Made by a program: the position numbers and the translations under genes. A stretch of DNA of 64,000 nt from an uncultured Elusimicrobia bacterium (GTDB lineage Bacteria; Elusimicrobiota; Elusimicrobia; 2-01-FULL-59-12), in contig OY969767.1 of NCBI GenBank assembly GCA_963702895.1, forward strand, positions 2,176,001-2,240,000, given 5' to 3'. The notes under the pieces were generated by a model. That model was not told the origin of the DNA. It was given only the letters and a program-made list of their open reading frames with translations, and ran no database searches. This document shows, piece by piece, positions 19,941-37,813 of the stretch (the stretch's first letter is position 1; every line of letters begins with the position of its first letter).

Positions 19941-19991
19941 GGAATGGTTCATCCTTTCGAGAATTATTCTGTTAGTCTCATGCAACTACTA

Positions 19992-20018
19992 ACGACCAGG
20001 GCACGTCCCCCTGGTCGT
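19992..20018. terminator. 10-bp stem-loop directly after the G8 stop (possible attenuator or mRNA stabiliser)
   Basis: acgaccaggg-N7-ccctggtcgt; no good U-tract. Confidence 0.4.
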
Positions 20019-20019
20019 C

Positions 20020-23000
20020 TCACCGGATCACCACCACTTGCCCCGTCTTTTTGGCTCCGCCGTCCGCCTTCAGGTGATAGACGTAAATCCCCGAGGCCAC
20101 CCGGTCGCCGCTTTCATTGGTCAGGTCCCAGGTGACCGAGCTGCTTGAGGTGGGCAGCGTCTTCACGTGGTGCCCCGAGACTGTAAAGATCTTGATCTCG
20201 GTATCGATCGTGAGACTGTCAAAAGTGACCGACCTCGCCGCGTGCCGGTCGCTCCGCCAAGGGTTGGGATAGACCCGGACCTGATCGAGATTGGCTGACA
20301 CCAGCGTTACCTGCGCCGAAGCCGGCGAAGAGGCGCTGCCGGAGGCGTCATGGGCCGTGACGGTCACGAGGTATGTTCCCAGGTCAAGGTTCTGCGCGGC
20401 GAGGCTTGCGACCGTAGAAGCCGTGGTGAAAGAGGCGCTTGGAGCATGTCCCGCACTTAGCGTCCCGTGTCTCGCGTCTTGCGTCTCGCGTCCGACGTCA
20501 ACCGCTGTCGGTGCTGGACTCGGGACCCGGAACCCGGGACTCGAGACTTGTGACGCGGGACTCGAGACTCGAGACTCGGGACTCGAGACTTGCGACGCGG
20601 GACTCGAGACTCGGGACGCGGGACCCACCATCGACGTAAACGTCCAACTGAAATACGCCGGCGCCACAGACCCGCCGTAGCCGGCGCGCACTTCGGCGTT
20701 CACCGGCAGATAAGCCGGCAGGTTCAAGGTCGGGGTGGCCAGGCCGCCGGGAGGTGGAGGGGGTGGAGGAGGAGGCGGGGGTGGTGGCACGACGATCGGA
20801 CAGCTGCCGGAGGGGCAATACTCATAGGCTCCGATGTCCCAGGCGGTACCTTGAGGCCGCGACACACCCTCCTTGTCGGTGGCGAACTCGCTTTGCACGC
20901 TTCCCGCATCGATCACCGGTGAGCCGGCCAGAGGCTTATACGATCCATCCAAACGAGGATCGACGTTCAGGCCATGGGCATCGAACCCCAGCGCGCGCCA
21001 CTCGGACCAGGTCTTGTCGGCATCTCGGTAGCGAACGAGTGCGCTCGCACCCTCATGATGGTTGTAGTCCAGCGATACAACGTTAACCCCTCCGGATAAA
21101 TCGATGCTATACCGCCCATTTTTGGAGAGGATATTATTCTGCAACTTTGAAATCGTGATGGTTCGGCCGCCTGACGCGGACGCCCTGAAACCGGTTCGCG
21201 TGTTGGAAACAATCGTGTTGTTGAGTATTTGTAGGTTTGAGATCGTGGCCCCCGCCGCCGTCGCGAAGACCTGGATGCCTTGCTGGGCATTGCCATGGAT
21301 CAGATTGTTGTAGACGAGAATGTTATTGAGCGTTTTGCCGTTCCCTGCTCCGTCGCCGTCCGCGTTAATCATGATGCCGTGCCCGCCGTCACCCACATCG
21401 CGAGGTTGGAGGCTGTAGAGCTCGTTCCCGTAGACTTGCACATCGCTTGCCGCCACAACGATCCCTGCCAGGACGCCCCCCGTAGCCCCCGCATAGACGA
21501 TGTTGTTGCGAACAATCGCTCCAAAGTTTCCCGGTTTGATGTCAATGTCCCCTTCCCCTGCCGTGCCCGCATTGATGACCGTATTGCCTTCTACCACAGT
21601 CCCCGTGATGGTGTCCGCCAGATAGTTGTAATGCCCCATGTAGATACCTTCCAGCGGGGTATTGCTGATCACGTTATCGCGGACCGTAATGTTGTAACAG
21701 CCGTCTTCGGCGTAGCCAAACCAGATCCCGTGATTGTTGACCGGGGTGTCCACAATGTTGTTCTCCACCAGCACATCGTAGATGTTGCGAGTCGGATTCG
21801 CGGTACCAAGCGCGACACCGCCCCACGACGGCCTGATGAGCTGGAACCCCCGTATAGTTATGAAGGCGTTGTCGTTGTGGACAGAGATCGTGCCGCCCCC
21901 CCCGCCTGCATGGGTCAGCGTGGCTCGATTGCCCGGTACCGTCTCCGTCTGCCACACCGCCGTGCCGCTGATCGCGGTGTTGTACTTTGATTGCCCGTCA
22001 AGTCGAAGGGGGCGCTCGGCGTTAGCGCTGGTGCCGACCGGGATGGTGAGGTACTGATCGTCGTTCCACGTGGCGCGGCTTGAGAAGTAGAGGGTGACCG
22101 GCCCAACTTGTAAGGCGCTCTTGATCAGTGTCCAATTGATGTCGCCGCGCCGCTTCCAAGGATTGGCGGCGGAACCGTCCCCCGAAGTAGTGCGGGCATA
22201 ATCAATAAAGTATTCGGTGCCCTCTGTAGCGGTAGATCCGAAAGTCGTAGCGCTCGCCGCGGCCGACAGCGCCGAGACATTCCCGGCCGCATCGTAAGCG
22301 GTCACGCGGTAGCTGTAGGACGTCGAAGGCACAAGGCCCGTGCTTATATAGGAAGTCCCACTGGTGACGCTCGAGATCCAGACCCCATTGCGATAAATAC
22401 CGTAGCCTGCCACCCCGACCGCATCAGTCGAGGCGGTCCAAGAAAGATTGATCGCTGTCGAAGAAACGGCCACCGCCGCGAGGCCCGTCGGCACCGAAGG
22501 GGGGGTCGTGTCCGGCGGAGGGGGTGCTCCACTTGTTGCGGCGACGTAGAGGGTTTTGCTCGCGTAAAGCGGGTAAACCCTCACGCCGAGCGCTCCGCCG
22601 CCCACAGAGCAAGTGTAAGGACTTGCGTTGTCGACCGTGGTCGGGATGCCATCCTCGTAACAAACGACAAAACGAACAAGCTCCGTGTCCGAGGGCGTTA
22701 CAGTAACAAGCCCGCCCGACTGAGAATAGGTCGCGCTCAAGGTGTAGCCGCCCGCCTTGTAGGGATACGCCCCGATGTCGGGTGTGGCATCGTGACCGAA
22801 GTACACCGCCTCCCCGTTGGCCCATGTGAAGGACGGCGTAACGGTGATGGCGTTTCCTGAGATACTCACCACGGTCACGACGTCGGTGCCGACCGTGATC
22901 GTATCGCCCACCACCACATTGCCGCCATATTGCGTGATGGTCGTATCATCATCAGAAAAGTAGCTGGCGTCACCCACCATGAACGTCGTGCCCGTATTGT

Positions 23001-24369
23001 TGGCGGACGTGACCGTCGTGAGCGGACCACCTGCATTTCGTGCGGGTGAGCCAGACTGAAGCGTAAAATCTCGAGTTGCCGCATTGGTCACTAATGGATT
23101 CGTATTCCGGAGAGAATGCGCTTCGGCGTTGATTGTACTCGCGTAATTGATCGATCCGCCTATATCGTAAAAAATATTGTAGTCATGCACGGCGGGAGTA
23201 TCATCATAGACACCGACTGGATTCGTCCCTGGCCACCACGCTTGGTGCCAGATATTGTTCAAGACCCCTCGGCCAGCCGCGACGTTACTACCACGGTCAT
23301 AAGTGACATAATGCGAGGCATATGCGATGGTTTCGTGATAAATTTTGAGGAAAGCCTGTCCGTCCGCAAGCCCAAAACACTGCCCGCCTGCGTTGCCATT
23401 ACTGGACCAGACGTTTCGCCGGAATATCGTATAGGCGTCCAAGCTGGCTGAATTGGTTTCGATATTGGTACAGTGATGTTCACTTCCGGACTCATCGGCG
23501 TAGAAATTCCCCTCATACAGTGAGTGGCCCAAGCCAATAGAATCCTGACCGGATTGAATGAAATCGGTATGAGATGAAGGAGCCGCATTCACATTATGGC
23601 TATAGTTGTTCAGTAGCCTATTTCTTTGCCCAAAGAGATAGATGAAGTCAACCTCGGGGGTGTCGGATTCGTTATAGGCAATGACGTTGCTGTTGCCACG
23701 AACCTGAAAATCTTTGAATGCGGAATGCTTAATCACATTGCCGATAAAGAGACAGTTGTTGGATTGGTATAGCCTAGCTCCGTTGTCCGTTCTTATGGAA
23801 TCTCCTTCAAAGTTCTGTATGGTGTTATTCCATATCTCAACATAATCAGCATTTTGCAGGTAGATCCCATCGTTTCTGGTATTTCCGCCTTCGACGATAA
23901 AACCTATCACTCGAATCCAATCGCCAGTAATGACCCATCCGAAATTCGTCACAGACCCATCAGCCACGAAGGTGATGTAGTTTCCGGCAGACCCCGAGCT
24001 ACTGGCCGTGACTACCTCTGCGTAAGTGCCCGCCTGCACCCGGATCACATCTCCCGCCGCGACGTGATCGGCCGCCCAGTCGATGGTCCGCCACGCCCCG
24101 CCCGAGGTGTTCGTCAATCCGGTGTTGGTGTTGTTCCCATCGGCGCGGACATAATAGGTGGCCGCTTGCGCCGCCGGAGCAGCCAGCATCAAGAGAAGGA
24201 CGTATCGGAGTAACGGGGTAACGGTGTATCGGAGTAACGGCACGACGGCAGCGAGCAGCACAAAGCGAACAGCGCACAGAGCACAGCGTGCGGCATCACG
24301 TTCTCCGCTGTTCGCTCTTCTCTGTTCGCTCTGCGCTGCCGTTGTGTTGATGCGCTGATAACGACTCAC
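20020..24369 (-). CDS. G8: secreted protein (beta-helix, FN3, beta-helix, Ig-like, CTD)
   Basis: 1449 aa; ATYYVRADGNN; DTTPPSVPTGL FN3; WDIGAYEY; poly-Pro linker; CTD. Confidence 0.9.
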   Translation of the reverse strand: MSRYQRINTTAAQSEQRRANSGERDAARCALCAVRFVLLAAVVPLLRYTVTPLLRYVLLLMLAAPAAQAATYYVRADGNNTNTGLTNTSGGAWRTIDWAADHVAAGDVIRVQAGTYAEVVTASSSGSAGNYITFVADGSVTNFGWVITGDWIRVIGFIVEGGNTRNDGIYLQNADYVEIWNNTIQNFEGDSIRTDNGARLYQSNNCLFIGNVIKHSAFKDFQVRGNSNVIAYNESDTPEVDFIYLFGQRNRLLNNYSHNVNAAPSSHTDFIQSGQDSIGLGHSLYEGNFYADESGSEHHCTNIETNSASLDAYTIFRRNVWSSNGNAGGQCFGLADGQAFLKIYHETIAYASHYVTYDRGSNVAAGRGVLNNIWHQAWWPGTNPVGVYDDTPAVHDYNIFYDIGGSINYASTINAEAHSLRNTNPLVTNAATRDFTLQSGSPARNAGGPLTTVTSANNTGTTFMVGDASYFSDDDTTITQYGGNVVVGDTITVGTDVVTVVSISGNAITVTPSFTWANGEAVYFGHDATPDIGAYPYKAGGYTLSATYSQSGGLVTVTPSDTELVRFVVCYEDGIPTTVDNASPYTCSVGGGALGVRVYPLYASKTLYVAATSGAPPPPDTTPPSVPTGLAAVAVSSTAINLSWTASTDAVGVAGYGIYRNGVWISSVTSGTSYISTGLVPSTSYSYRVTAYDAAGNVSALSAAASATTFGSTATEGTEYFIDYARTTSGDGSAANPWKRRGDINWTLIKSALQVGPVTLYFSSRATWNDDQYLTIPVGTSANAERPLRLDGQSKYNTAISGTAVWQTETVPGNRATLTHAGGGGGTISVHNDNAFITIRGFQLIRPSWGGVALGTANPTRNIYDVLVENNIVDTPVNNHGIWFGYAEDGCYNITVRDNVISNTPLEGIYMGHYNYLADTITGTVVEGNTVINAGTAGEGDIDIKPGNFGAIVRNNIVYAGATGGVLAGIVVAASDVQVYGNELYSLQPRDVGDGGHGIMINADGDGAGNGKTLNNILVYNNLIHGNAQQGIQVFATAAGATISNLQILNNTIVSNTRTGFRASASGGRTITISKLQNNILSKNGRYSIDLSGGVNVVSLDYNHHEGASALVRYRDADKTWSEWRALGFDAHGLNVDPRLDGSYKPLAGSPVIDAGSVQSEFATDKEGVSRPQGTAWDIGAYEYCPSGSCPIVVPPPPPPPPPPPPPGGLATPTLNLPAYLPVNAEVRAGYGGSVAPAYFSWTFTSMVGPASRVSSPASQVSSPESRVSSPASQVSSPGFRVPSPAPTAVDVGRETQDARHGTLSAGHAPSASFTTASTVASLAAQNLDLGTYLVTVTAHDASGSASSPASAQVTLVSANLDQVRVYPNPWRSDRHAARSVTFDSLTIDTEIKIFTVSGHHVKTLPTSSSSVTWDLTNESGDRVASGIYVYHLKADGGAKKTGQVVVIR

Positions 24370-27300
24370 TTAATCACCACCACTTTCCCCGTCTTTTTGG
24401 CTCCGCCTTCCGCCTTCAGGTGATAGACATAGATCCCCGAGGCCACCCGGTCGCCGCTCTCATTGGTCAGGTCCCAGGTGATGGAGCTGCTTGAGGTGGG
24501 CAGCGTCTTCACGTGATGCCCCGAGACCGTGAAGATCTTGATCTCGGTATCGACCGTGAGTTGGTCAAAGGTGACTGACCTTGTGCTGTGCCGGTCGCTG
24601 CGCCAGGGGTTGGGATAAACACGGACCTGATCGAGATTGGCCGAGACGAGCGTCACCTGCGCCGATGCCGGTGAAGAGGCGCTGCCAGAGGCGTCATGGG
24701 CCGTGACGGTCACAAGGTATGTTCCCAGGTCAAGGTTCTGCGCGGCGAGGCTTGCGACCGTTGAAGCCGTGGTGAAAGAGGCGCTTGGAGCATGTCCCGC
24801 ACTTAGCGTCCCGTGTCTCGCGTCTGGCGTCTCGCGTCCGACGTCAACCGCTGTCGGTGCTGGACTCGGGACCCGGGACCCGGGACTCGAGACTTGTGAC
24901 GCGGGACTCGAGACTCGGGACTCGGGACTCGAGACTTGCGACGCGGGACTCGAGACTCGGGACGCGGGACCCACCATCGACGTAAACGTCCAACTGAAAT
25001 ACGCCGGCGCCACAGACCCGCCGTAGCCGGCGCGCACTTCGGCGTTGACCGGCAGATAGTCAGGAAGATTGAGCGTCGGCCTGGACAGGCCGCTGGGTGG
25101 AGGAGGCGAAGACGGCGCCTGCGTCGTAGCGCTTGCCGCGACCGACAGCGCCGAGACATTCCCGGCCGCATCATAAGCCGTCACGCGGTAGCTGTAAGAC
25201 GTCGAAGACACAAGGCCCGTGCTTATATAGGAAGTCCCACTGGTGACGCTCGAGATCCAGACCCCATTGCGATAAATACCGTAGCCTGCCACCCCGACCG
25301 CATCAGTCGAGGCGGTCCAAGAAAGATTGATCGCTGTCGAAGAAACGGCCACCGCCGCGAGGCCCGTCGGCACCGATGGCGGGGTCGTGTCCGGAGGCGG
25401 GGTGCTGGTCGTGTATTCATAGGCTCCGACGTCAGGAGCACTGCCGTAAAGCACCCTCATGCCATCTGATTTCCTGTAGAGCCACACAGAATCGCCGTCA
25501 TTGCGGCTGATGCTGTTGGCCAGGGTCAGCGTATGGGTGAGATAGTCTATGGCTAAAATCTGCCCTGTATTGGCCGCCGATCCTACAGCGATCCAGTCCG
25601 CGTTCGTGCCTGCCCAGCCCGGCTGAAAATACCCGGCATCCTGGAGGATCAGCGTCGTTCCCGATCCGCCGTCCGAAGTGGCCACCGTCGTGAGGGCAGC
25701 TCCGGCATCAATGGCGGGGGAAGTCGCTTGGAGAGTGCCGTTCGAAGGATAGTTGGCGAGGAGAGGGTTCCTGTTCTTCAAGGTGTTATAGGTCGCTTCC
25801 ATGCTGATCGGACCCATCCACTCCCCAGTGTACCCGTCCGCATACGGGAGATTGCCGTTGGATTCCTGAGTTCCTGACCCCCCGGTGTAGATCGGCCAGC
25901 GATTCAGCGTGCTGATCGTGTTGTAGCAGAGGTTGTTCTTGGCACGGCTGTAAGGCGAGTTCGCGGGCATCATCATGCAGCTGAGGTCCGAGGAGGATGG
26001 CCCACCGGCCGAAATGGTGTTGCTGAAGAGATAGTACCGGCTCTGATTGGTGCATGGCACACAGATCCCCGGCGCGGCGAGATCTTGGACGTTGTGGGTG
26101 TAGTTGTATCGCATGATGATGTTCCGTTGCGCCCCATAACTCCCAGACTCCAGCCACGTAAAATGGGAGTTGCCGGTCGGATCGAGCGCGTTCCGAAAGA
26201 CATTGCCCTCGATCAGACTCTCAATGATCTCCGTCGGCCCATTGTGGATGCCATCCATGTGCGCGGGGGACTGAACGCCGGTTTCGTCCGCGTCCATGTC
26301 ATGCAGGACATTATTCCGGATGACGGAGTGGTTCCCACCCCAGTTGATGGCGTCATCGGTCGTATGCGAGATGTCGTTCCCTTCAATCAGCGTGTTGTCG
26401 CCATAGCTCGCAATCCCCCAGGCTGTCCCATTGGACTCCAGGAGATAGTACCACCCGCATCGTGTGATGACGTTGTTTCGGATGATGGCGTGATGCGAAC
26501 GGGAGCCGCTCGCCGGATTGAAGCGGACGCAGGTGTTGCGCTCCGCCGTGATGGAGTTATTCTCCACCGTGACACCGATGGCAGAATTCACGTCCACGCC
26601 GATGGATGACGTACTGCCGGTGTGGATCGTGAACCCCGAAATCGTGAGGTAGGGATGGGTGATGGAGAACCCCCGCACCGTGGGCCTCTGTCCCGTTGCC
26701 GCGGCGATGCTGATGCGAGCGCTGTTCGAGGTGCCGCCGCGCACTGAAGACACGCGCTCGTTGTAAGTCCCGTCATAAACCTCGCAGGTCTGCCCCGCTT
26801 GTGCCGCGTTCACGCAGGCCTGAATCGTCGTGAAGTGGCCGGAGCCATCGGGTTTAACCGTATAGGTGTCCGGTGGCGGGGACACCCCAGGCGTTGCGGC
26901 GACGTAGAGAGTTTTGCTCGCGTAAAGCGGGTAAACCCTCACCTCGAGCGCTCCGCCGCCCACAGGGCAAGCATAAGGACTGGTGTGATCGACCGTGGTC
27001 GGTATGCCGTCTTCATAGCACACCACAAAACGAACCAGCCCCGCGTCGGAAGGCGTGACGGTCACGACCCCGCCGGATTGAGAATAGGTCGCGCTCAGCG
27101 TGTACCCGCCCGCCTTGTAGGGATAGGCTCCAATGTCCGGAGTCGTTGTAGAACCATAGTAGACAGGTTCGCCGTTGGCCCAGGTAAACGGCGACGTGAC
27201 GGTGATGGCATCCCCGGCAACGCTGGCGATGGTGACGACATCGTTGCCAACCGTGATGGTGTCGCCGACAATGAGGTTCCCACCGTACTGGGAGAGGTTC

Positions 27301-28706
27301 GTGTTGTCACCCCGGAAGAACCCCCCTCCAGGGGTCGCTACGTTGAAGGTCGTCCCCGTTCCGCTGCCGCTCACCGTTGTAAGCGGTCCGGCCTTGCCGA
27401 TGGCCCCGGAACCAGCGCCCAGGGTGAAGTCATCCGTGGCGAAATTGACGAATCGCGGGTTGACGTTCGACTGTTCATGGGCTTGCATCGTCCACATCGA
27501 CGCAAAAGAAACAGGGCCATCGGGGTCATACGCAAGGTTGTAGTCGGACGTCAGCCCGCCCGTCACATAAAAGACTTCTAAGTTGGAGGTGGCACTGTCC
27601 CCCCAGCTTTGATATTCGAGATTGTTCAAGATGAAGCCGTCGGACGTCATCGGTCCGTACCAGCACACCCCGTATCGCGTCGTGGGGGAGTTGCGGGAAG
27701 CGCCAGCGGTCGTGTTGTTGTAATAGCGCGTGAAACTGACGGGTCCAACACTGGTTTGATTAATACCCACCGTTGCTTGGCTGACGTTATGCCAGACGTT
27801 GCGGCGGAAGATATTTTCCGTCATAGGGCCGCAGGCACCGGTGCAATTCCCTGGTTGGCCGTGACTGATCTGGGCCGTATGTTCATCCCCGGCGTTGCCG
27901 ACACCCACTTGGAAGTGGCCCTCAATCAAACTGTTGCTCCAGCCCCGATTGTTTGAGCCGGTCTGAAAAACATCGGAATGACCACCCGAGGCTTCACTGA
28001 AATCGTGCGTATAATTTCCAATCCATCGGTTATGGGAGCCCATGATCAAGAATCCATCAGGGTGGGAATTATAAACTTCGTTATAGGCGATGAAATTATT
28101 GTCACCCCAGGTGCCGACGGCCATGCCGGAACCGTTGCCGATGCCAAAATTCGCGAAGGTGTTGCCGATGATGAGGCTATTATTAATCACTCCGCTGCAG
28201 CCGTAGCCGCATCGGATGCCATTACCTAGCCCATTTCTGATGGTGTTGTTCCAAAACTCTAAATAGCTTACGGTACCGCATATCAAAACAACCCCACTTT
28301 GGAGACTGCACGAGCCTGCATCCGAATCCATGGAAAAGCCAATGACGCGAATGAAATTGTTGCCGGTAAAATCAAACCCGCAGACCGTGACGGCTCCGTC
28401 AGCCATGAACGTAACGGTGTTCGACACGGATGTCCCATTCACCCCCGGCGTAACGCGCTCTTCATACGTGCCAGGCTGAACGCGGACGACATCGCCCGCT
28501 CTGACGTGATCCGCCGCCCAGTCGATGCTACGCCACGCCCCGCCAGTTGTGTTCGACGTCCCGGGGTTGCCATTGTTCCCGTCGGTCCGGACATAGTAGG
28601 TCGCCGCCTGCGCCTTGGATAGGACTAAAATAAAGACTAAAATCAGACCTAATATAGTCTTGAAATAAGACCTCTTGTAGTCTATAATCGGTTCAGGAGG
28701 TCTCAT
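24366..28706 (-). CDS. G7: secreted protein (two beta-helix modules, FN3, Ig-like, CTD)
   Basis: Signal TILGLILVFILVLSKAQA before ATYYVRTDGNN; nearest ATG is 28706, but the frame stays open to ATG 29327. Confidence 0.85.
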   Translation of the reverse strand: MRPPEPIIDYKRSYFKTILGLILVFILVLSKAQAATYYVRTDGNNGNPGTSNTTGGAWRSIDWAADHVRAGDVVRVQPGTYEERVTPGVNGTSVSNTVTFMADGAVTVCGFDFTGNNFIRVIGFSMDSDAGSCSLQSGVVLICGTVSYLEFWNNTIRNGLGNGIRCGYGCSGVINNSLIIGNTFANFGIGNGSGMAVGTWGDNNFIAYNEVYNSHPDGFLIMGSHNRWIGNYTHDFSEASGGHSDVFQTGSNNRGWSNSLIEGHFQVGVGNAGDEHTAQISHGQPGNCTGACGPMTENIFRRNVWHNVSQATVGINQTSVGPVSFTRYYNNTTAGASRNSPTTRYGVCWYGPMTSDGFILNNLEYQSWGDSATSNLEVFYVTGGLTSDYNLAYDPDGPVSFASMWTMQAHEQSNVNPRFVNFATDDFTLGAGSGAIGKAGPLTTVSGSGTGTTFNVATPGGGFFRGDNTNLSQYGGNLIVGDTITVGNDVVTIASVAGDAITVTSPFTWANGEPVYYGSTTTPDIGAYPYKAGGYTLSATYSQSGGVVTVTPSDAGLVRFVVCYEDGIPTTVDHTSPYACPVGGGALEVRVYPLYASKTLYVAATPGVSPPPDTYTVKPDGSGHFTTIQACVNAAQAGQTCEVYDGTYNERVSSVRGGTSNSARISIAAATGQRPTVRGFSITHPYLTISGFTIHTGSTSSIGVDVNSAIGVTVENNSITAERNTCVRFNPASGSRSHHAIIRNNVITRCGWYYLLESNGTAWGIASYGDNTLIEGNDISHTTDDAINWGGNHSVIRNNVLHDMDADETGVQSPAHMDGIHNGPTEIIESLIEGNVFRNALDPTGNSHFTWLESGSYGAQRNIIMRYNYTHNVQDLAAPGICVPCTNQSRYYLFSNTISAGGPSSSDLSCMMMPANSPYSRAKNNLCYNTISTLNRWPIYTGGSGTQESNGNLPYADGYTGEWMGPISMEATYNTLKNRNPLLANYPSNGTLQATSPAIDAGAALTTVATSDGGSGTTLILQDAGYFQPGWAGTNADWIAVGSAANTGQILAIDYLTHTLTLANSISRNDGDSVWLYRKSDGMRVLYGSAPDVGAYEYTTSTPPPDTTPPSVPTGLAAVAVSSTAINLSWTASTDAVGVAGYGIYRNGVWISSVTSGTSYISTGLVSSTSYSYRVTAYDAAGNVSALSVAASATTQAPSSPPPPSGLSRPTLNLPDYLPVNAEVRAGYGGSVAPAYFSWTFTSMVGPASRVSSPASQVSSPESRVSSPASQVSSPGSRVPSPAPTAVDVGRETPDARHGTLSAGHAPSASFTTASTVASLAAQNLDLGTYLVTVTAHDASGSASSPASAQVTLVSANLDQVRVYPNPWRSDRHSTRSVTFDQLTVDTEIKIFTVSGHHVKTLPTSSSSITWDLTNESGDRVASGIYVYHLKAEGGAKKTGKVVVIK
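28660..28700 (+). promoter_or_regulatory. Sigma70-type promoter, RBS and probable operator repeats of the TA operon
   Basis: TTGAAA (28660-28665), 17-nt spacer, TATAAT (28683-28688); AGGAGG at 28695-28700; AGACCT-N6-AGTCT quasi-palindromes overlap both boxes. Confidence 0.8.
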
Positions 28707-28998
28707 GAGAATCATCCAATTCGCAAAAGACATTGTCCCAATCGGAGCCTTCAAGGCGCAGGCCGCGGCGTGGCTGAGTCGTCTTCGGGAAACCGGACAT
28801 TTGGTCGTCATCACACAGAATGGTAAACCGGCAGGGATTCTTCTTTCCCCGTCGGAGTTTGATCGGATCCAGGAGAAAGAGCGATTTTTAGAGTCTGTGG
28901 CCAAAGGCCTTGCAGACGCTGAAGCCAACCGGGTCATGAGCAGCTCAGAGCTCAAGCGACGACTTGGCGCGTGGCGGCAAGCGAAAAAGGCTTCGTGA
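28705..28998 (+). CDS. Phd/YefM family antitoxin
   Basis: 97 aa; FKAQAAAWL...VVITQNGKPAGILLSPSEFD; strong RBS. Confidence 0.9.
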   Translation: MRIIQFAKDIVPIGAFKAQAAAWLSRLRETGHLVVITQNGKPAGILLSPSEFDRIQEKERFLESVAKGLADAEANRVMSSSELKRRLGAWRQAKKAS

Positions 28999-29297
28999 GG
29001 GTTGTTTGGACGGAGCAGGCGCTGGAGCGGCTCCAGGAAATTGAAGATTTTATCTCTCAAGATTCTCCCGAACGAGCGGACCGTTTTATCACCCGCTTGA
29101 TCGAACGCGGCGATGCCGTCGCCTCTTTTCCCAGCACGGGACGCCAAGTCCCTGAGTTGGGATTGGGCTCGATCAGAGAAGTTCTCGAAGGCAACTACCG
29201 CCTTGTGTATCGCATCACTCCGGTGCGCATTGAAGTCCTGACTGTTTTCGAGGGCCACCGGCAGCTGCCGCTCAGCGACATCACGCCGCAAACGTAA
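28995..29297 (+). CDS. RelE/ParE family toxin
   Basis: GTGA overlap with the antitoxin stop; VVWTEQALERLQEIEDFI, FPSTGRQVPE, GNYRLVYRI. Confidence 0.9.
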   Translation: MRVVWTEQALERLQEIEDFISQDSPERADRFITRLIERGDAVASFPSTGRQVPELGLGSIREVLEGNYRLVYRITPVRIEVLTVFEGHRQLPLSDITPQT

Positions 29298-29327
29298 CCC
29301 GCTCATCACTTTACGGTTGTCTCGCAT

Positions 29328-32300
29328 TTATTTGATCACCACCACTTTCCCCGTCTTTTTGGCTCCGCCTTCCGCCTTCAGGTGATAGACGTAGATCCCC
29401 GAGGCCACCCGGTCGCCGCTTTCATTCGTCAGGTCCCAGATGACGGAGCTGCTTGAGCTCGGAAGCGTCTTCACGTGGTGCCCCGAGACCGTGAAGATCT
29501 TGATCTCGGTATCGATCGTGAGACTGTCAAAAGTGACCGACCTCGCCGCGTGCCGGTCGCTCCGCCAAGGGTTGGGATAGACCCGGACCTGATCGAGATT
29601 GGCTGACACCAGCGTTACCTGCGCCGAAGCCGGCGAAGAGGCGCTGCCGGAGGCGTCATGGGCCGTGACGGTCACGAGGTATGTTCCCAGGTCAAGGTTC
29701 TGCGCGGCGAGGCTTGCGACCGTAGAAGCCGTGGTGAAAGAGGCGCTTGGAGCATGTCCCGCACTTAGCGTCCCGTGTCTCGCGTCTTGCGTCTCGCGTC
29801 CGACGTCAACCGCTGTCGGTGCTGGACTCGGGACCCGGGACTCGGGACTCGAGACTTGTGACGCGGGACTCGAGACTCGGGACTCGGGACGGTTCACCTG
29901 AACAAACGTCCAACTGAAATACGCCGGCGCCACAGACCCGCCGTAGCCGGCGCGCACTTCGGCGTTCACCGGCAAATACGCGGGCAAATTCAGTGTCGGT
30001 GTGGAGAGGCTCCCGGGCGGGGGAGGTGACGGCGGAGGGGGTGGCGGCAGCACGATCGGACAGCTACCCGAGGGGCAATACTCATAGGCACCTGCCTCCG
30101 GGGCACTCCCATCGTAGGCCAGAGACACCCCTTGTCCGCTCGTCCAGCTCAGAGAACGATCCACGGTCAAGGTCTTGGAAGTATAGTCAACCGCCAACAC
30201 ACGCGCGCGCTGCGCACTTCCCAGCAATTGGATCAGATCTCCCTCCACGATGCCCCATCCATCCATAAAGTAATTCGCGTTTTCCACGACGAAGGAGGTG
30301 CCCGACCCGGATGCGGAAGTGACGCTCGTCAGCGCTCCGCCCGCATCGATACAAGGACTGGTGCTCTGGAGATGCAGGTCGGGGGTCGTGTGGTCGGCGG
30401 GATCGCCCAGCGTGAGGCTCGCGCTGACAAACTTCGGATCCCCTTGAACGTCGCCATTCCAGTTATGGGCGAAGATCTGCACAGCCATGATCCCTTTGCG
30501 ATCGGGCGTGTTGATGTTGTACTCGCCGAAGGGAATGCGGTGCCCATAGAGCAGATTGTTCTTGAGCACATTGTCTCGAATCACGAGGCTCCCGCTATAG
30601 ATGCCAAACCCGATGCCGGAACTCATGTGATCGGTGGGGTCATAGGGGTTGAAGCCGTTGTGGAAAAAAGTGTTGTTGTACACCGCATTGGAGAAAATGC
30701 TCTGCAGGTAACTCGAGGTGAGGCTCATGCTCAAGCCGGCGCTGATGTTGTGGTAGAAACGGTTGAACCGCACAATATTGTGGCTTGAATTGAGTGCCGC
30801 ACCGGAGGCTCCGTTGTTGTCGGAAGGATCGGCGGAATAGGCGATCTGATTATTTTCTAAGAGATTGCGGCCGCCGTTCTCACTGTAGCCGCCAAACGAG
30901 AGATTGCGATTGCCGTAGAGGACCGCCCCGCGGTCGGACGCCGCCGTCCCCATCGACCAGGGCTCATTATGGACATAGTTGCGGCGCAACACGTTGTACA
31001 TCCCGTAAACACCCACGACATGGTGTCCGCCGTGGAAGAAGGTGTTGTCCTCGATCAGGTTATAGCGAGTTGCATCGGTTCTCCCCTCTTCGCTGCCGAT
31101 GTCGAGCACACAGCCATGGTCATCGGCGTCATAGTAACCGTATTTGGAGAATCGGCAGTGATGGATCCAGTTATGCTGGGAGCTCAGCGAAATTCTGGAA
31201 CCGCTCCAGGCACCGGCGCTCGAGCCTTGATCAAAATTACAGTAGGCGATGATGTTGTGATTGGCCCCGTTTTGCAAAAACATGAAGCGGTAAAGAGAAT
31301 GAAAGTTGATGCCCTGGACGGTAATGTAGGACTTGCCGTTGAGAGAAATGCCGTCCATGATGCCCGCAATCGTGACGACATCGGTGCCAAAATTTCGGTA
31401 CGTGATTCTCTGGGTCGAGGTGCCCGAACGCGCCGGAACAATGGCGTTGCTGTAGGTCCCTGCCTTGATGTAGACCGTGTCGCCCGCCAGCAGGGTTTGA
31501 TTGGCTTTGGTGATGGTTTTCCACGGCTGGCTGAGCGTGCCGGGATTTGCATCGTTCCCGGTGGCCTGGTCGACATAGTAAACCCCGCCTTCCAAGGTCA
31601 GCGGATGAGGATAGGGATAGGGGGTGTAATAGGCCGTCCAGGTGTTGGGGGCCGTGCACTTATACAATGTTCCGGAGATTGGCTGGGCAGGATGAGTACC
31701 GATATTCGCGGATTCGACCACGGAGCAGTTCTGATGGGTTGCCCAGTAACCAACTCCGGTGGTGCAGGTCGCGGGAAGTTTGTCAAAGCTGCCGCATCCA
31801 ATCCCCGTTGAGCCGTCAAAGGAGGAGGCATAATTAAAGAATTCTGAATTTTCTTTTATGACATTGCAGCAATCGTTGACCACTTGGTACTGCGAAGTGT
31901 GGTCAGGAATAACATCCCAGTTTAATTTTGTTGTCAGGCGTGTGTTCGTGATGCTATCAAGCTGGCGAAATTGTCCTGTGCCGGTTCCGCTCAGTATTTT
32001 GACACCGAAAGCATAACAGCCGGCCGAGCAAAAAGAAAAATTCGCGGCGCTGTCATCGAGATAATTGGTTCCGCCACCTGTTGCCGTGCCGGCAGTATTG
32101 ATGTTGACGGCATTAAAAACAGTGTCGTTTTTTCGATTGTTCCAATAATAAGAATCCGAAACATGTTGCGGCTGGCCGTCGGGCGATGTGACGGGTGGCG
32201 AAATGGAATCGTCATATTCTTCTGAAATGCGAGAGTAAACACTGCCGCTGGTCAGAACCTTGTTCCAAAAGACAAGCGCCCTTCCACCACGCTGACCCAG

Positions 32301-33134
32301 GAAAGGGGAAGCTGCATACGAACCTCCATTGACGAGATTACCGTAAACCTCAACCCCCATGGTGGCGCTGACCCCGGAAGGTTGATTCCCATGTTCATCA
32401 AATAACGGGAAAACGCTTTTAGAGAGATTGTAAGTATTGTATCGATTGGCATATCTCCCTCCGTGACCACCCGTATCCATGGTCTGCGAGGTGTTAAAGA
32501 CGTTGTCCTCGTAATATAAATTGTCCGCGGTTCCATATTTAAACGTGAGGTTCGTCCAAGCTGCTGACTGCAACCCCAGGTTGTCAAAATGCACCGCTCC
32601 AGTGAAGGTATTGTGATCCACCACGCCATAGACAGGCCCTGAGATCATCATCGTCGCAAGAGGAGTCCATTGGCAGTTCACAAAATTATTATGGTCAATT
32701 CTGACTTTATTGACCGGAAAGAATACATTCGTGTTGGCTAAGAGCAAGGCGGGCGAGGTGTTGTTCAGATCAAAAGTAAAACCAGTTACTCTGAAGGGTT
32801 CATTCGATGCCGGGTTCGTGGGAAGATAAGAAATCAAATACGAAGTATTTGGCATGTTCGATCGAATGAGTGTATGGCCTATGCCTGTGCCTTGAAAGAT
32901 GACACCCTTCTTAATCTCAAGAGTGCTAGTCCATACGCATGAACCGGCGGGCACGAGCACCGTGTCCCCAGATGCTGCTGCCGTAATCGCCGCCTGCACG
33001 TCGGTCTGAGAACAACTGGCGGCGGTGACCGTGGCCGCCTGAACGGCCAACGGCGAAAATAGAAAATAGACAATAGACAGACCAGATAATCCATTTGCTA
33101 TTGTCCATTGTCGCCTTTGGCCGTTGACGTTCAC
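29328..33134 (-). CDS. G6: two-module secreted beta-helix protein with CTD
   Basis: 1268 aa; SCSQTDVQAA module, YPYPHPL, YYVDQATGNDANPG module, Ig-like domain, CTD. Confidence 0.9.
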   Translation of the reverse strand: MNVNGQRRQWTIANGLSGLSIVYFLFSPLAVQAATVTAASCSQTDVQAAITAAASGDTVLVPAGSCVWTSTLEIKKGVIFQGTGIGHTLIRSNMPNTSYLISYLPTNPASNEPFRVTGFTFDLNNTSPALLLANTNVFFPVNKVRIDHNNFVNCQWTPLATMMISGPVYGVVDHNTFTGAVHFDNLGLQSAAWTNLTFKYGTADNLYYEDNVFNTSQTMDTGGHGGRYANRYNTYNLSKSVFPLFDEHGNQPSGVSATMGVEVYGNLVNGGSYAASPFLGQRGGRALVFWNKVLTSGSVYSRISEEYDDSISPPVTSPDGQPQHVSDSYYWNNRKNDTVFNAVNINTAGTATGGGTNYLDDSAANFSFCSAGCYAFGVKILSGTGTGQFRQLDSITNTRLTTKLNWDVIPDHTSQYQVVNDCCNVIKENSEFFNYASSFDGSTGIGCGSFDKLPATCTTGVGYWATHQNCSVVESANIGTHPAQPISGTLYKCTAPNTWTAYYTPYPYPHPLTLEGGVYYVDQATGNDANPGTLSQPWKTITKANQTLLAGDTVYIKAGTYSNAIVPARSGTSTQRITYRNFGTDVVTIAGIMDGISLNGKSYITVQGINFHSLYRFMFLQNGANHNIIAYCNFDQGSSAGAWSGSRISLSSQHNWIHHCRFSKYGYYDADDHGCVLDIGSEEGRTDATRYNLIEDNTFFHGGHHVVGVYGMYNVLRRNYVHNEPWSMGTAASDRGAVLYGNRNLSFGGYSENGGRNLLENNQIAYSADPSDNNGASGAALNSSHNIVRFNRFYHNISAGLSMSLTSSYLQSIFSNAVYNNTFFHNGFNPYDPTDHMSSGIGFGIYSGSLVIRDNVLKNNLLYGHRIPFGEYNINTPDRKGIMAVQIFAHNWNGDVQGDPKFVSASLTLGDPADHTTPDLHLQSTSPCIDAGGALTSVTSASGSGTSFVVENANYFMDGWGIVEGDLIQLLGSAQRARVLAVDYTSKTLTVDRSLSWTSGQGVSLAYDGSAPEAGAYEYCPSGSCPIVLPPPPPPSPPPPGSLSTPTLNLPAYLPVNAEVRAGYGGSVAPAYFSWTFVQVNRPESRVSSPASQVSSPESRVPSPAPTAVDVGRETQDARHGTLSAGHAPSASFTTASTVASLAAQNLDLGTYLVTVTAHDASGSASSPASAQVTLVSANLDQVRVYPNPWRSDRHAARSVTFDSLTIDTEIKIFTVSGHHVKTLPSSSSSVIWDLTNESGDRVASGIYVYHLKAEGGAKKTGKVVVIK

Positions 33135-36100
33135 TTAATCACCACCACTTGCCCCGTCTTTTTGGCTCCGCCGTCGGCCTTCAGGACATACACGTAAATC
33201 CCGGAAGCCACCCGGTCGCCGCTCTCATTGGTCAGGTCCCAGGTGATGGAGCTGCTTGAGGTGGGCAGCGTCTTCACGTGATGCCCCGAGACCGTGAAGA
33301 TCTTGATCTCGGTATCGATCGTGAGACTGTCAAAAGTGACGGACCTCGCCGCGTGCCGGTCGCTCCGCCAAGGGTTGGGATAGACCCGGACCTGATCGAG
33401 ATTGGCTGACACCAGCGTTACCTGCGCCGAAGCCGGCGCCGAGGCCGTGCCCGCCGCGTCATAGGCGGTGACCGTCACTACGTAAGGACCAAGGTCCAGT
33501 CCCGCCGTGGCGAGATTCGCCTGCGGGGTCTGGGTGGTGAAGGAAGCGGAGCGGGCTGCGCTCGGTGCATGAACCGGCGAGCCGGCGACAGGGCGAGCCG
33601 GCGTCTGTGATGTTTCGCCGATTCCCCGATTCGCCGGTGCGCCGATTCGGTCAATGGGATTGAACGTCCACCCAAAATACGCCGCCGGTGTCGAACCGGT
33701 GTAGCCAGCCGAGACTTGAGCGTTCACCGGCAGATAAGCAGGCAGATCGAGCGTCGGCGTGGCGAGCCCCCCCGGCGGAGGAGGTGGAGGCGGCGGGGGC
33801 GGCGGCAGGACGGGGCCATAACAGTTGTTGGCATTAAAGTTCAGGACACCATTGGTTCTGGATGTGGTCTCAAAGCACACGCGTGCTGGAATTTTATAGA
33901 CATGACCGCCCACGCCGCTCACATTGCCACCGGTCACGTCTGGCCCAATCGAGGGCCAGGGGATCGCGGTGGGCCACCAGCTCGGCTTGGCCGAAAGATA
34001 AAGCGAGGCCGGTAGATCGTTTGTTGATGGAACAGGGTTGGAGAACTGGCTGAGTCCCGAGGGGACTTCGCTGGCGAGAAAGCGGGAGGTCCCGTTCACA
34101 GTGTCGTAGTTCCCCCAGCGAAGCAGTGTGGATTTGACGAGCGGATCTTCGAAGGAAGCGGGCAAGTTCCCAGAATCCCCCAACCGGAAAATCGACGTCT
34201 CGGGGCTCGTGAAGGAGGGGGTGACCGACTCGTAATTGGTGTGGTAGCCCGATCTTCCCAGCACATTACCGATGATGTTGAAAAAGCGGGTGAAGGAGTA
34301 GAGATTCACCGGCACGGTCTGAGCGGTCTTACCGGTCTCCCAGCCAATGAAATAATTTCGGAAGGCTGTAATGAAATGGTGGGTGCCGTGGATCACGTCC
34401 GCCGTGAAACCGGGCCCTTCATTGCCTTCATGCAGAATATATTCCGTGCCCGCCGCATGGGCGTAATTGCTGCCCTGCATCCAGTTGGCGGAGGCTGCGT
34501 AGTAATCATCGAACGCATAGTTGTAGGCTTCCACCAGGCCCGAGGCGGAGCCGCCCACCATCAAGGGCCCTGCGATATGATGGAAAATGTTGTTCTCCAC
34601 CAAATTGTCGGACCCCATATACGATTCAACCCCATAGCTTTGCGAGGCGGCATGCCGGGTGCCGTAGAAATAGCTATCACGCACCGTACAGTGCGCCGAC
34701 TCGTAGAGCCAGACGTGATTGCGGTCAGAGTTCAAATCTCGGACATTCTTGACCCAGCAGTCGTAGCACCAGATGAGGTAGATGTCTGAGCGGTTCCCGG
34801 ACGTGTTGAAGGTGTTATCCACAGACAGGTCTTCCACGCCGTTGCCGGAGGAGAACCCGCTCGAGTTCCCCCACCAGGCATGCGGGCTCTGTGACGCTCG
34901 CCAGTTCGGCATATAGAGACCCGGCGAGATGGTGACCAAGTTCCCGGCGATCGCGCTGACCTTGGTGAACTGCTGCTGAGCTCGATTGGGTTGGGCCCCG
35001 CCAGCCGGTCCTTGGTCCGCGCAGACACCTCCGGTGTCGCAGGCAAACACAGCTCCGGTATCCGCCGGATCATTGAGCTGGTCCAGAACGATCACCATCC
35101 CCACCGATAAACCGGTCGTATGGCTGAGCGTGATTTGGGTGGTTCCCTTGGCATAACCCGCTGTCCAGTTCGCGGTGTAGCGGGGGCTTTCCACGTAGTA
35201 GCTGTTGTCGGATGCTGCAACGCAGATATTGGCGCCCATCCCGCGGCACCGCGAACCGGACAGGAAGTTCAAGTAGGTTTTATCCGCCCCCGCCCCGCGT
35301 AGGGTCACGTTGTTCTTGCCGTTGAAATCAATGCCTTCCGAAAGGGTATAGGTCCCCGCAGGGATGTAAACGACCTGACCACTGGGGCAGGCTTGGATGG
35401 CGCTGTTGATCTCGGCGGCGCTGGCAAACGGAGGCAGGGTCGCGCAGATCGTGGTGCGGTTGGGAATCCCTCCGACCACGCCCGCCTGGCTCCAGTCGAT
35501 GGCCCGGGCGGGATCGAGGATGCCGGACCAAGGGATACCCGGCGGCGAAGTGGGCGCCTGCGTCGTAGCGCTGGCCGCGGCCGAGAGCGCCGAGACATTG
35601 CCGGCCGCATCATAAGCCGTCACGCGGTAGCTGTAAGACGTCGAAGACACAAGGCCCGTGCTTATATAGGAAGTCCCACTGGTGACGCTCGAGATCCAGA
35701 CCCCATTGCGATAAATCCCGTAGCCTGCCACCCCGACCGCATCGGTCGAGGCGGTCCAGGAAAGATTGATCGCTGTCGAAGAGACAGCCACCGCCGCAAG
35801 GCCCGTCGGCACGGATGGTGGGGTCGTGTCTGGCGGAGGGGGTGCTCCACTTGTTGCGGCGACGTAGAGGGTTTTGCTTGCGTAAAGCGGGTAAACCCTC
35901 ACGTCCAGCGATCCGCCGCCCACAGAGCAAGTGTAAGGACTTGCGTTGTCGACCGTGGTCGGGATGCGGTCTTCATAGCAAACCACGAACCGGACAAGCT
36001 CCGCATCGGAAGGCGTTACGGTCACCACCCCGCCCGACTGAGAATACGTCGCTGAGAGATCGTAGCCGCCAGGCCTATAGGAATACGCTCCGATGTCCGG

Positions 36101-37813
36101 TGCCGCGTTAGAACCATAGTAGACAGGTTCCCCGTTGGCCCAGGTAAACGGCGCCATAACCGTAATGGCATCACCGGAGATGGCAGATATTCTGACGGTG
36201 TCGTCGCCCACCGTGATGACATCGCCCACCACAAGATTGCCGCCATACTGAGTTAAATTAAGGTTATCCGCTCTGAAAAATCCGCCGCCATTGGCAAGCA
36301 CGTTAAAGGTGGTTCCTGTGCCGCCGCCACTGGTCGCGGTGAGCGGCCCCCCTCTCCCTCTGGCGCCGGAATGACTTTGCAGATGAAAGTCATCGTTGGC
36401 GTAATCCACAAACTGGGGGTTGGCGTTCCATTGGCCGTGCAGTTGAGTAGAAAATGGAGGAGCGAAGGTGACCGCTCCCTGCGGATCGTATCCCAAGTTG
36501 TAATCTATTTGATAGGTCATGCCCGCGCGATTACAACTGTTGTCTAAACTTAAACAGTACACCTCAAGATTGGACGCAGCACTATTTCCCCAACTCTCAT
36601 ATTCCAGGTTGTTGAGGATATAGGCATGATTCACCAAGGTGCCATACCAAGCCAGCCCATAGCGAACAGTGGGGTTGTACTCTTGTAAGTCAGCAGCCGT
36701 ATTATTGTAATACCGTATGTGGGTAATCGGCCCGACGGTGACCTGATTGATTCCCACGCCGCCGCTGCTCACATTGTGCCAGACGTTGCGGCGGAAGATA
36801 TTTTCCGTCATGGGGCCGCAGGCACCGGTGCAATTCCCGGGTTGGCCGTGACTGATCTGGGCCGTATGTTCATCCCCGGCGTTGCCGACACCCACTTGGA
36901 AGTGGCTCTCAATCAAACTGTTGCTCCAGCCCCGATTGTTTGAGCCGGTCTGAAAAACATCGGAATGACCACCCGAAGCTTCACTGAAATCGTGCGTGTA
37001 ATTTCCAATCCATCGGTTATGGGAGCCCATGATCAAGAATCCGTCGGGATGGGAATTATAAACTTCGTTATAGGCGATCAAACTATTGTCTCCAACAGTG
37101 CCGACAGCCATGCCGGAACCGTTGCCGATGCCGAAATTCGCTAAGGTGTTGCCGATGATGAGGCTATTATTAATCACTCCGGTGCAGCCGTAGCCGCATC
37201 GGATGCCATTACCTATCCCATTTCGAATGGTGTTGTTCCAAAACTCTAAATAGCTAACGGTACCGCATATCAAAACAACCCCACTTTGCATGTTGCAGGA
37301 TCCTTGATCCGAATCCATGACAAAGCCTATGACACGAATGAAGCTGTTGCCGGTAAAATCAAACCCGCAGACCGTGACGGCTCCGTCAGCCATGAACGTA
37401 ACGGTGTTCGCCACGGATGTGCCATTCACCGCCGGTGTAACGCGCTCTTCATACGTTCCGGGCTGAACGCGGACCACATCGCCCGCGCTGACGTGATCGG
37501 CCGCCCAGTCGATGGTCCGCCACGCCCCGCCCGAGGTGTTCGTCAATCCGGTGTTGGTGTTGTTCCCATCGGTGCGGACATAATAGGTGGCCGCCTGCGC
37601 CGCCGGAGCAGCCAGCAGCAAGAGAAGGCTGTATCGGAGTAACGGGGTAACGGTGTATCGGAGTAACGGAGTAACGGTGTATCGGGGTAACACCTCTAAG
37701 AGCGTAATGTGTTTACGTTGCTGTGACTCCGATACTCCGATACGCCCCGCCATCACATCGTTGGCGGGCCCGCCGTGATGTAGTGGCGGGCGATACGCCG
37801 ATACGAAGTTCAC
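33131..37813 (-). CDS. G5: secreted protein (beta-helix, FN3, pectate-lyase-like beta-helix, CTD)
   Basis: 1560 aa; IDWSQAGVVGGIP...VYIPAGTY...TLRGAGADKT; CTD. Confidence 0.9.
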   Translation of the reverse strand: MNFVSAYRPPLHHGGPANDVMAGRIGVSESQQRKHITLLEVLPRYTVTPLLRYTVTPLLRYSLLLLLAAPAAQAATYYVRTDGNNTNTGLTNTSGGAWRTIDWAADHVSAGDVVRVQPGTYEERVTPAVNGTSVANTVTFMADGAVTVCGFDFTGNSFIRVIGFVMDSDQGSCNMQSGVVLICGTVSYLEFWNNTIRNGIGNGIRCGYGCTGVINNSLIIGNTLANFGIGNGSGMAVGTVGDNSLIAYNEVYNSHPDGFLIMGSHNRWIGNYTHDFSEASGGHSDVFQTGSNNRGWSNSLIESHFQVGVGNAGDEHTAQISHGQPGNCTGACGPMTENIFRRNVWHNVSSGGVGINQVTVGPITHIRYYNNTAADLQEYNPTVRYGLAWYGTLVNHAYILNNLEYESWGNSAASNLEVYCLSLDNSCNRAGMTYQIDYNLGYDPQGAVTFAPPFSTQLHGQWNANPQFVDYANDDFHLQSHSGARGRGGPLTATSGGGTGTTFNVLANGGGFFRADNLNLTQYGGNLVVGDVITVGDDTVRISAISGDAITVMAPFTWANGEPVYYGSNAAPDIGAYSYRPGGYDLSATYSQSGGVVTVTPSDAELVRFVVCYEDRIPTTVDNASPYTCSVGGGSLDVRVYPLYASKTLYVAATSGAPPPPDTTPPSVPTGLAAVAVSSTAINLSWTASTDAVGVAGYGIYRNGVWISSVTSGTSYISTGLVSSTSYSYRVTAYDAAGNVSALSAAASATTQAPTSPPGIPWSGILDPARAIDWSQAGVVGGIPNRTTICATLPPFASAAEINSAIQACPSGQVVYIPAGTYTLSEGIDFNGKNNVTLRGAGADKTYLNFLSGSRCRGMGANICVAASDNSYYVESPRYTANWTAGYAKGTTQITLSHTTGLSVGMVIVLDQLNDPADTGAVFACDTGGVCADQGPAGGAQPNRAQQQFTKVSAIAGNLVTISPGLYMPNWRASQSPHAWWGNSSGFSSGNGVEDLSVDNTFNTSGNRSDIYLIWCYDCWVKNVRDLNSDRNHVWLYESAHCTVRDSYFYGTRHAASQSYGVESYMGSDNLVENNIFHHIAGPLMVGGSASGLVEAYNYAFDDYYAASANWMQGSNYAHAAGTEYILHEGNEGPGFTADVIHGTHHFITAFRNYFIGWETGKTAQTVPVNLYSFTRFFNIIGNVLGRSGYHTNYESVTPSFTSPETSIFRLGDSGNLPASFEDPLVKSTLLRWGNYDTVNGTSRFLASEVPSGLSQFSNPVPSTNDLPASLYLSAKPSWWPTAIPWPSIGPDVTGGNVSGVGGHVYKIPARVCFETTSRTNGVLNFNANNCYGPVLPPPPPPPPPPPGGLATPTLDLPAYLPVNAQVSAGYTGSTPAAYFGWTFNPIDRIGAPANRGIGETSQTPARPVAGSPVHAPSAARSASFTTQTPQANLATAGLDLGPYVVTVTAYDAAGTASAPASAQVTLVSANLDQVRVYPNPWRSDRHAARSVTFDSLTIDTEIKIFTVSGHHVKTLPTSSSSITWDLTNESGDRVASGIYVYVLKADGGAKKTGQVVVIK

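Follow-up and report, generated by a model that had tools for sequence, protein, structure and literature searches.

How can a protein of secreted type keep an export signal when a toxin-antitoxin operon lies, on the opposite strand, where its leader ought to be? The question is raised by G7, one of twelve large paralogous genes (G1-G12) in the 64,000-nucleotide stretch of an uncultured Elusimicrobia genome analyzed here (contig OY969767.1, positions 2,176,001 to 2,240,000; hereafter the window, to which positions refer). The genome is a single contig of 2.72 Mb and is 98% complete. A two-gene toxin-antitoxin (TA) operon sits antisense between G6 and G7, and its promoter-operator region, read in reverse, seems to encode the signal peptide of G7. 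Although the parts are of known kinds, one short stretch of DNA thus appears to do two unrelated jobs, TA control and the marking of G7 for export.

Immediately upstream of the mature G7 coding sequence, the minus strand encodes the pattern expected of a Sec/signal peptidase I substrate: a basic n-region (DYKRSYFK), a hydrophobic h-region (TILGLILVFILVLS) and an AxA motif (KAQA). The AQA/AT junction is identical in G2, G5 and G8, and the mature N-terminus, ATYYVRTDG, is common to G2 and G5. Since the nucleotide similarity of G7 to G2 and G5 begins at the AQA codons, everything upstream appears to have replaced the normal leader, in support of an earlier note on this DNA, which proposed that insertion of the TA operon displaced it. 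The note had also described the h-region as the antisense of repeats abutting the -35 box of the TA promoter, and this is what positions 28658-28617 encode. Its further proposal, that TA regulatory DNA was exapted as the signal peptide, gains weight from the finding that the h-region is read from operator-like sites of the TA family.

The operator motif was learned from 102 non-redundant homologous promoters (of 129), with our own locus excluded. It is near-palindromic and 14-16 nt long, with a log-likelihood of 503 at width 14 versus 37 in shuffles. The corresponding position weight matrix (PWM) finds four sites here, one over the -10 box and three overlapping under the h-region (Table 1); a score of 10 is reached at 0.025% of background positions. 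This four-site cluster is unique in the 2.72-Mb genome, four sites occur in 2/102 homologous promoters, and of the 97 promoters with a site, 3 have one equally far upstream. A 9-nt word is present in two copies 12 nt apart under the h-region, where the antisense reads ILVF and ILVL; the TA family normally shows spacings of 11 as well as 12 nt, so the 12-nt period is uninformative. L020, the closest homologue, has 76% antitoxin identity; it carries the 28645-60 site with its flank in nearly identical form, and its antisense reads ILGLI followed by a stop, while our locus has two extra operator-like sites upstream. Two positions of the site at 28634, 8 and 14, are off-consensus (of 136 homologous sites, 14 and 23, respectively, have T there), departures that in the predicted G7 frame change Asn to Ile and Asp to Val.

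The resulting h-region is far beyond chance. Its 12-residue Kyte-Doolittle (KD) mean of 3.61 is the highest of 133 promoter antisense readings (the next are 3.10 and 3.04), and its 10-residue mean exceeds those of the other eleven paralogues (2.0-2.82). When junctions were simulated from 102 promoters at 71 positions each, an open and correctly placed h-region with KD of at least 2.0 arose in 39/7242 trials, from six promoters, and none reached 3.0; the 35 A/T-rich promoters gave 14/2485 at KD 2.0. In 20,000 base shuffles of the 51 bases of the locus, 0.065% reached KD 3.5 and 6.9% reached 2.0. These sequence statistics give good support to the view that the TA promoter-operator is reused as a signal peptide, which we consider likely. 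Furthermore, G7 has no lesion across 1412 codons and retains all 26 invariant columns in an 18-sequence alignment of relatives, which together with the h-region statistics favors a G7 that is exported and maintained. The genome-wide heptamer repeats that build other leaders were ruled out as a source of the h-region by the unique cluster and the match to the TA family motif.

What comes from sequence and its comparison is the anatomy of the junction (Table 1), the derivation of the h-region from operator DNA, the order in which the starts rank, the rule of coupled starts and the failure to find a signal recognition particle (SRP).

Table 1. Features of the G6-G7 junction and its array, in window coordinates (SD, Shine-Dalgarno).
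Feature	Position	Strand	Evidence or remark
Array G1-G12, 12 large paralogous secreted-type protein genes	9276..52014	-	Tandem; TA at central junction (six genes on each side)
Mature G7: right-handed beta-helix domain(s), fn3, C-terminal T9SS-type-A-like Ig domain	24366..28604	-	Model and profiles
G7 pre-sequence, 241 codons: ~221 residues antisense to the TA, followed by basic n-region, h-region and AQA cleavage motif	28605..29327	-	Open frame
c-region KAQA	28605..28616	-	Predicted signal peptidase I cut before 28604 (from pattern)
h-region TILGLILVFILVLS	28617..28658	-	10-residue KD mean 3.53
Three overlapping operator-like sites under h-region (28645-60, 28634-49, 28623-38)	28623..28660	.	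PWM scores 16.4, 16.1, 10.0
TA promoter TTGAAA-17-TATAAT	28660..28688	+	Minus strand reads IIDYKRSYFK (n-region)
Operator-like site over -10 box	28679..28694	.	PWM score 16.6; overlooked in the earlier note
Antitoxin SD AGGAGG	28695..28700	+	-11.2 kcal/mol
Alternative internal G7 starts ATG 28733, 28715, 28706	28704..28733	-	SD -3.7, -3.0, -5.4
Phd/YefM antitoxin, 97 aa	28705..28998	+	PF02604 E 3.9e-15; TIGR01552
ParE/RelE-superfamily toxin, 100 aa; GTG overlaps antitoxin TGA	28995..29297	+	PF05016 E 1.9e-16
30-nt flank, toxin stop to G6 stop	29298..29327	.	No terminator-like site
G6 stop TAA	29328..29330	-	Sole TAA among 11 junctions; others TGA
SD-like sequence from conserved last G6 codons (VVIK)	29334..29343	-	-14.0 kcal/mol

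The operon has the layout of a type II TA system, with the antitoxin gene directly 5' of the toxin gene, a 4-nt overlap and both products over their Pfam cut-offs. Toxin subtype signals differ: Pfam and the PDB matches (6x0a, 5cw7, 5czf) point to ParE, whereas the NCBIfam RelE/StbE model TIGR02385 is barely above its cut-off (29.3 bits versus 27.9). The operon has its own promoter (TTGAAA at 28660-28665, TATAAT at 28683-28688; 11/12 consensus and the best of two sites within 28000-30000), and the four motif matches are putative binding sites. No terminator-like site was found on the plus strand between the toxin and G6, and the flank there has only four scattered 14-of-16 matches elsewhere in the genome. 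An Rfam scan of 24000-34000 gave two sub-threshold miRNA matches only.

We suggest that a mobile Phd-ParE cassette inserted backwards in the G6-G7 leader slot, removing the original G7 leader and signal peptide. G7 would have survived in that the A/T-rich operator array, in antisense, spells a basic n-region (from the promoter) and an h-region in frame with the retained AQA, an extra operator-like repeat lengthening the h-region. Ribosomes completing G6 would meet one start, ATG 29327, beside the strong array-wide SD, and the frame across the TA genes would be open by a roughly 1-in-15 accident, kept rather than built. The likeliest product would be a pre-protein with a 241-residue non-conserved leader, SecA taking up its internal signal and signal peptidase I cutting it; weak internal starts may yield a short form of G7 in addition. 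Overlapping transcripts would make TA and G7 mutually repressive, as in noncontiguous operons. We hold this account as a whole with moderate confidence; the steps that we infer are the translation of G7, its export and cleavage, binding to the operator and whatever regulation there may be.

Alternatively, the arrangement may be kept mainly because TA addiction, through the putative toxin, stabilizes a deletion-prone array, with the overlap locking the TA in and regulatory cross-talk unimportant. This is compatible with the insertion account above, differing on why the arrangement persists, and we regard it as a tentative possibility. The last 270 nt of the paralogues are 83-95% identical across G1-G12, about 750 nt of G7 are common to G3, G4 and G8 at 91-93% identity, and the TA junction is removed in 36/66 pairwise deletions, the most of any junction. 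TA cassettes are also described as stabilizing the Vibrio superintegron (bioRxiv 10.1101/2023.11.17.567518). Stabilization of the array by the TA is thus possible, but the central position is just one of eleven junctions, which makes it a weak argument, and a three-gene array fragment of genome G003 has no TA-sized open reading frame (ORF) between its genes.

Within the insertion account, the array itself suggests where translation of G7 begins. The VVIK codons ending each paralogue double as the SD of the next gene, and at 9/10 other junctions the overlapping start is in frame with the next protein, G8-G9 being the exception. At G6-G7, ATG 29327 is the sole start codon within -4 to +15 of the G6 stop, and its SD is the best of 17 in-frame candidate starts compared as duplexes with the genome's own 16S 3' end. 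By our estimate, a start at the coupled position that is both in frame and open would arise jointly with a chance of about 0.02 (one third times ~0.06). Whatever the reason that it is open, the frame should be entered at 29327 by ribosomes leaving G6, and the long coupled form with its 241-residue pre-sequence seems the likelier route. That leader has a net basic charge, and its sole hydrophobic stretch begins at residue 221.

A second alternative, which we consider doubtful, retains the operator-derived signal peptide but has G7 translated from an internal start (28706, or the in-frame ATGs at 28715 and 28733, overlooked in the earlier note) with a 35-44-residue leader, so that the 207-codon frame upstream would be a shadow of no relevance, or would give a product that is not exported. 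The h-region would then be N-terminal in a signal peptide of normal length, rather than lying from residue 221 on; the protein collection likewise calls G7 from 28706, as 1446 aa. The long frame is open by chance in ~7-20% of such pairs, and the leader it encodes has no recognizable family or fold. The internal starts, however, have SD energies of -3.0 to -5.4 kcal/mol, inside the background of internal ATGs (median -4.1, quartile -5.7), and a reading that bypasses 29327 sets aside both the improbable conjunction at the sole coupled-position start and the coupling rule of the array.

In coordinates, the coupled leader starts of the paralogues (minus strand) are 11048, 13057, 16938, 24369, 33134, 37813, 41346, 45185 and 48043, and these leaders are mostly made up of short tandem repeats, YTVTPLLR among others, from which the h-region is drawn as well. 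The G8-G9 junction (19940-20020) has a G+C hairpin and separate candidate starts. At the G6 TAA, a 4-nt word is repeated (29324-29337), unlike at other junctions; speculatively, a small duplication restored the G6 stop after insertion.

The minus-strand frame is open for 1653 codons, from 29327 to 24366. The earlier note had drawn attention to the ATG at 29327-29325, immediately 3' of the G6 TAA (29330-29328), to a stop-free run of more than 200 codons across the antisense of both TA genes into G7, and to a CATG common to ATG 28706 and the antitoxin ATG. All three are present, the run comprising 207 codons before ATG 28706, although the shared CATG is ruled out as evidence of design, being a family trait found at 62/128 homologous starts. 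The note had added that the frame would be a chance product if it were equally open in homologous TA loci, and here the outcome is divided. From 161 antitoxin loci we obtained 107 distinct pairs (complete toxin and start, duplicates removed), 97 of them with the G7-type junction phase. Of these 97, 20 have the G7-type frame open across both genes, all 20 above 60% GC and many of them kin; the frame is open in 0/33 pairs below 60% GC and in 6/52 of the genome-collection subset. Frame length alone is therefore no evidence of design, while the h-region remains well outside what chance produces.

The fitted probability of an open frame at the GC of the locus is ~0.07, and a null of synonymous-codon re-coding gives 0.08; the open frame over both TA genes is moderately unusual, no more. 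The cause lies in the structure of the overlap: over the toxin, the frame is codon-aligned and antisense stops require rare Leu/Ser codons, and over the antitoxin they require Tyr, His or Gln in context, this antitoxin having no Tyr. Three of six other TA-type loci of the genome also have antisense ORFs of at least 200 aa. The 241-codon leader has no family match among profiles and no Atlas match (best score 0.75), and no longer protein with this leader occurs among 2508 candidates, which is weak evidence. Its single-sequence model (pLDDT 39.9) is uninformative, and its codon score lies inside the antisense background. Among 57 homologous pairs, no stop common to the closest homologues had been removed in this frame, a test limited by synonymous sites that are largely saturated, the comparison with the three closest homologues included. 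A selected dual-coding gene over the TA was ruled out by the lack of any homologue or family, the lack of a purged stop and the background codon score; the 207 codons do not appear to be a selected second gene, and the long frame is probably in large part luck.

It is improbable, finally, that a recent selfish insertion silenced G7, with the open frame and hydrophobic stretch coincidental and the gene yet to decay: this genome does have TA cassettes gathered at operon junctions, genome G004 has them among similar genes without nesting, a strong convergent TA promoter could suppress the region, and A/T-rich DNA tends to encode hydrophobic peptides (as the shuffles reaching KD 2.0 illustrate; PMC7005711), but in-frame h-regions at the right distance were rare among the simulated junctions and never as strong as that of G7, the h-region would need to have arisen together with a coupled start that is in frame and open, and G7 is intact.

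The SRP proteins Ffh and FtsY were found in 0/41 genomes (our own and 40 of the same class), with 14/14 protein controls positive, and SRP RNA was not found in our genome. SRP scarcity in Elusimicrobia has been reported (PMC7987157), and the class-wide count is possibly firmer than the passages of that paper give. SRP-dependent targeting of the long form was set aside on this basis; since no SRP was found, SecA would target the pre-protein, and the genome encodes SecA, three signal peptidases and RNase III. In Escherichia coli RodZ, 111 residues and a basic patch precede the membrane helix, and the protein is SecA-targeted without SRP (PMC5674894). We found no paper on the cleavage of such an internal bacterial signal, so this step is one that we infer.

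Regulation could run in both directions. The TA transcript is predicted to overlap the array transcript by ~600 nt, all internal G7 starts included, which makes mutual repression of TA transcription and G7 synthesis probable. Stress-induced TA transcription would lower G7 and the coupled G8, and strong array transcription would lower antitoxin supply. Translational gating would reach G7-G8 at most, because G9 is without a coupled start; for translation, the reach from G7 to G12 suggested in the earlier note is too wide. In noncontiguous operons, overlapping transcripts repress each other via RNase III and transcriptional interference (PMC11034616; PMC11087260). Such operons are described as not computationally predictable (PMC11034616), and examples include the Staphylococcus aureus menE operon and an atlas with TA systems (PMC11034616) and tha-1/ith-1 (phage 80alpha, PMC11087260). 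Their layout, antisense genes with their own promoter between co-directional genes, is also found here. We think it unlikely that the fullest version holds, in which a complete, active TA operon lies inside a translated 241-residue pre-sequence, the same 70 bp serve as promoter, multi-site operator and signal-peptide code with repeats tuned for hydrophobicity, TA state is a stress switch for G7/G8 export, array transcription brakes antitoxin supply, and cassette and gene are locked together. If true, an SRP-less lineage with SecA handling internal signals may tolerate whole mobile operons in array leader slots.

The cargo itself is likely a glycan-acting protein. A structure model (pLDDT 89.9) gives the N-terminal part of mature G7 a right-handed beta-helix, with best Foldseek matches to XylC, lacto-N-biosidases and PL6 lyases at 10-15% identity. 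Its C-terminus is over the cut-off of TIGR04183 (39.7 bits versus 23; Atlas 0.97), as in type IX secretion system (T9SS) cargo with a type A C-terminal sorting domain; a PF18962 match there falls below the Pfam cut-off. All of G1-G12 end in an Ig-like domain, nearly the same in each, with resemblance to the T9SS type A sorting domain. The linker before the C-terminal domain contains translated inverted heptamer repeats (SRVSSPES; 24860-24970 and 29820-29890).

Elsewhere in the genome, the N-termini of several housekeeping or envelope genes beside four-helix-bundle cassettes derive from repeats, and the interval from atpA to atpG contains a stack of small ORFs. In genome G004 (L017:9100-12300), a 71% identical Phd-ParE pair and a PIN gene lie among repeated spacer blocks, antisense to and downstream of two similar secreted-protein genes with the same C-terminal domain, and are not nested. 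Repeat-built leaders, stacked ORFs and the G004 cassettes suggest that leader slots of this lineage take up foreign DNA, with G7 as the extreme case. No second nested case occurs among the homologous loci examined: at 16 of them a long antisense frame runs through the promoter without a hydrophobic stretch above KD 1.63, and most of these shadow a sense-strand gene (by eye). Nesting was likewise not seen by eye at 15 further toxin loci drawn from 300 of the phylum's genomes, two of them L002 and L020 again. In the literature, judged from titles and the starts of abstracts and with subscription papers mostly outside its scope, we found no precedent of a TA operator encoding a signal peptide.

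Several other observations touch on the TA family and its surroundings. At L177:2-1786, an antisense frame of 158 codons runs from the TA region through the promoter into protein-kinase-like sequence (by eye), with no hydrophobic signal. At L100:583-1700, a close TA homologue, a four-helix-bundle gene (PF05635) and heptamer repeats form one stack, which suggests that the TA family travels in repeat-flanked cassette piles. A similar secreted-protein gene in genome G007 (L217:441-5003) has a stop-overlapping ATG and a 70-residue leader, which we take to resemble a translated REP-type palindrome. IS-type transposases flank the array region (4829-6175 and 56335-57378; PF13701, IS110 family), and a near-identical IS110 copy adjoins the genome's second Phd-ParE pair (G000:C1:646106-647149). 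Sequencing run X1 contains short low-depth pieces identical to G7 and G6, none of the listed pieces covering the TA.

Several points weigh against the insertion account. It concerns one uncultured genome, and no G7 orthologue was found in 10 family genomes. Chance explains the long frame fairly well, since the open homologous pairs, the re-coding null, the lack of a purged stop and the other antisense ORFs make it explicable without selection. The strong SD at 29327 is inherited from G6 coding sequence and did not evolve for that start, and a 241-residue leader is an outlier against 30-82 aa in the 11 paralogues. The 43-kb array is assumed to be co-transcribed, with scans for promoters and terminators yielding background counts only; binding of the TA complex to the operator-like sites is read from the motif and family behavior; and RodZ, the model for SecA targeting, is uncleaved.

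If G7 is exported, this locus would offer a traceable recruitment of mobile-element regulatory DNA as a protein-targeting signal with its first job retained, the traceable parts being the donor family, a pre-adapted half (ILGLI in L020) and an added repeat. It would also allow a simple test of the length and arbitrariness that a bacterial pre-sequence can have where SRP is missing, and would offer one way for a selfish TA to become undeletable.

Among known systems, RodZ resembles the G7 leader in its long N-terminal element, basic patch, internal hydrophobic helix and SecA-dependent, SRP-independent targeting (the last proposed for G7), but its N-terminus is a conserved, folded and retained domain, whereas G7 has 221 antisense residues followed by an AQA cleavage motif. 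PfiA/PfiT of the Pseudomonas prophage Pf4 (PMC7264888) likewise places a Phd-family antitoxin before a ParE-family toxin, with autoregulation by a complex that binds a palindrome over its -35 region; by its description, the operator sequence is another one, four sites are predicted here, and neither nesting nor a signal peptide is described there. In the Vibrio cholerae superintegron (bioRxiv 10.1101/2023.11.17.567518), TA cassettes also lie within, and possibly stabilize, a long repetitive array, whereas here there is no integrase among the Pfam matches of the window, the members are large paralogues and the TA overlaps the coding frame of one of them. The de novo membrane peptides of yeast (PMC7005711) share the principle that T-rich non-coding DNA, which tends to encode hydrophobic helices, is a source of a ready one, but the donor DNA here, in a bacterium, apparently remains a working promoter/operator on the other strand. 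Closest in layout are the noncontiguous operons, which like the G6-G7 junction have antisense genes with their own promoter inside a co-directional run, given the co-transcription assumed here; in those, however, the antisense gene lies between operon genes, whereas here it lies inside a probably translated frame, with a promoter/operator that seems to encode the signal peptide of G7.

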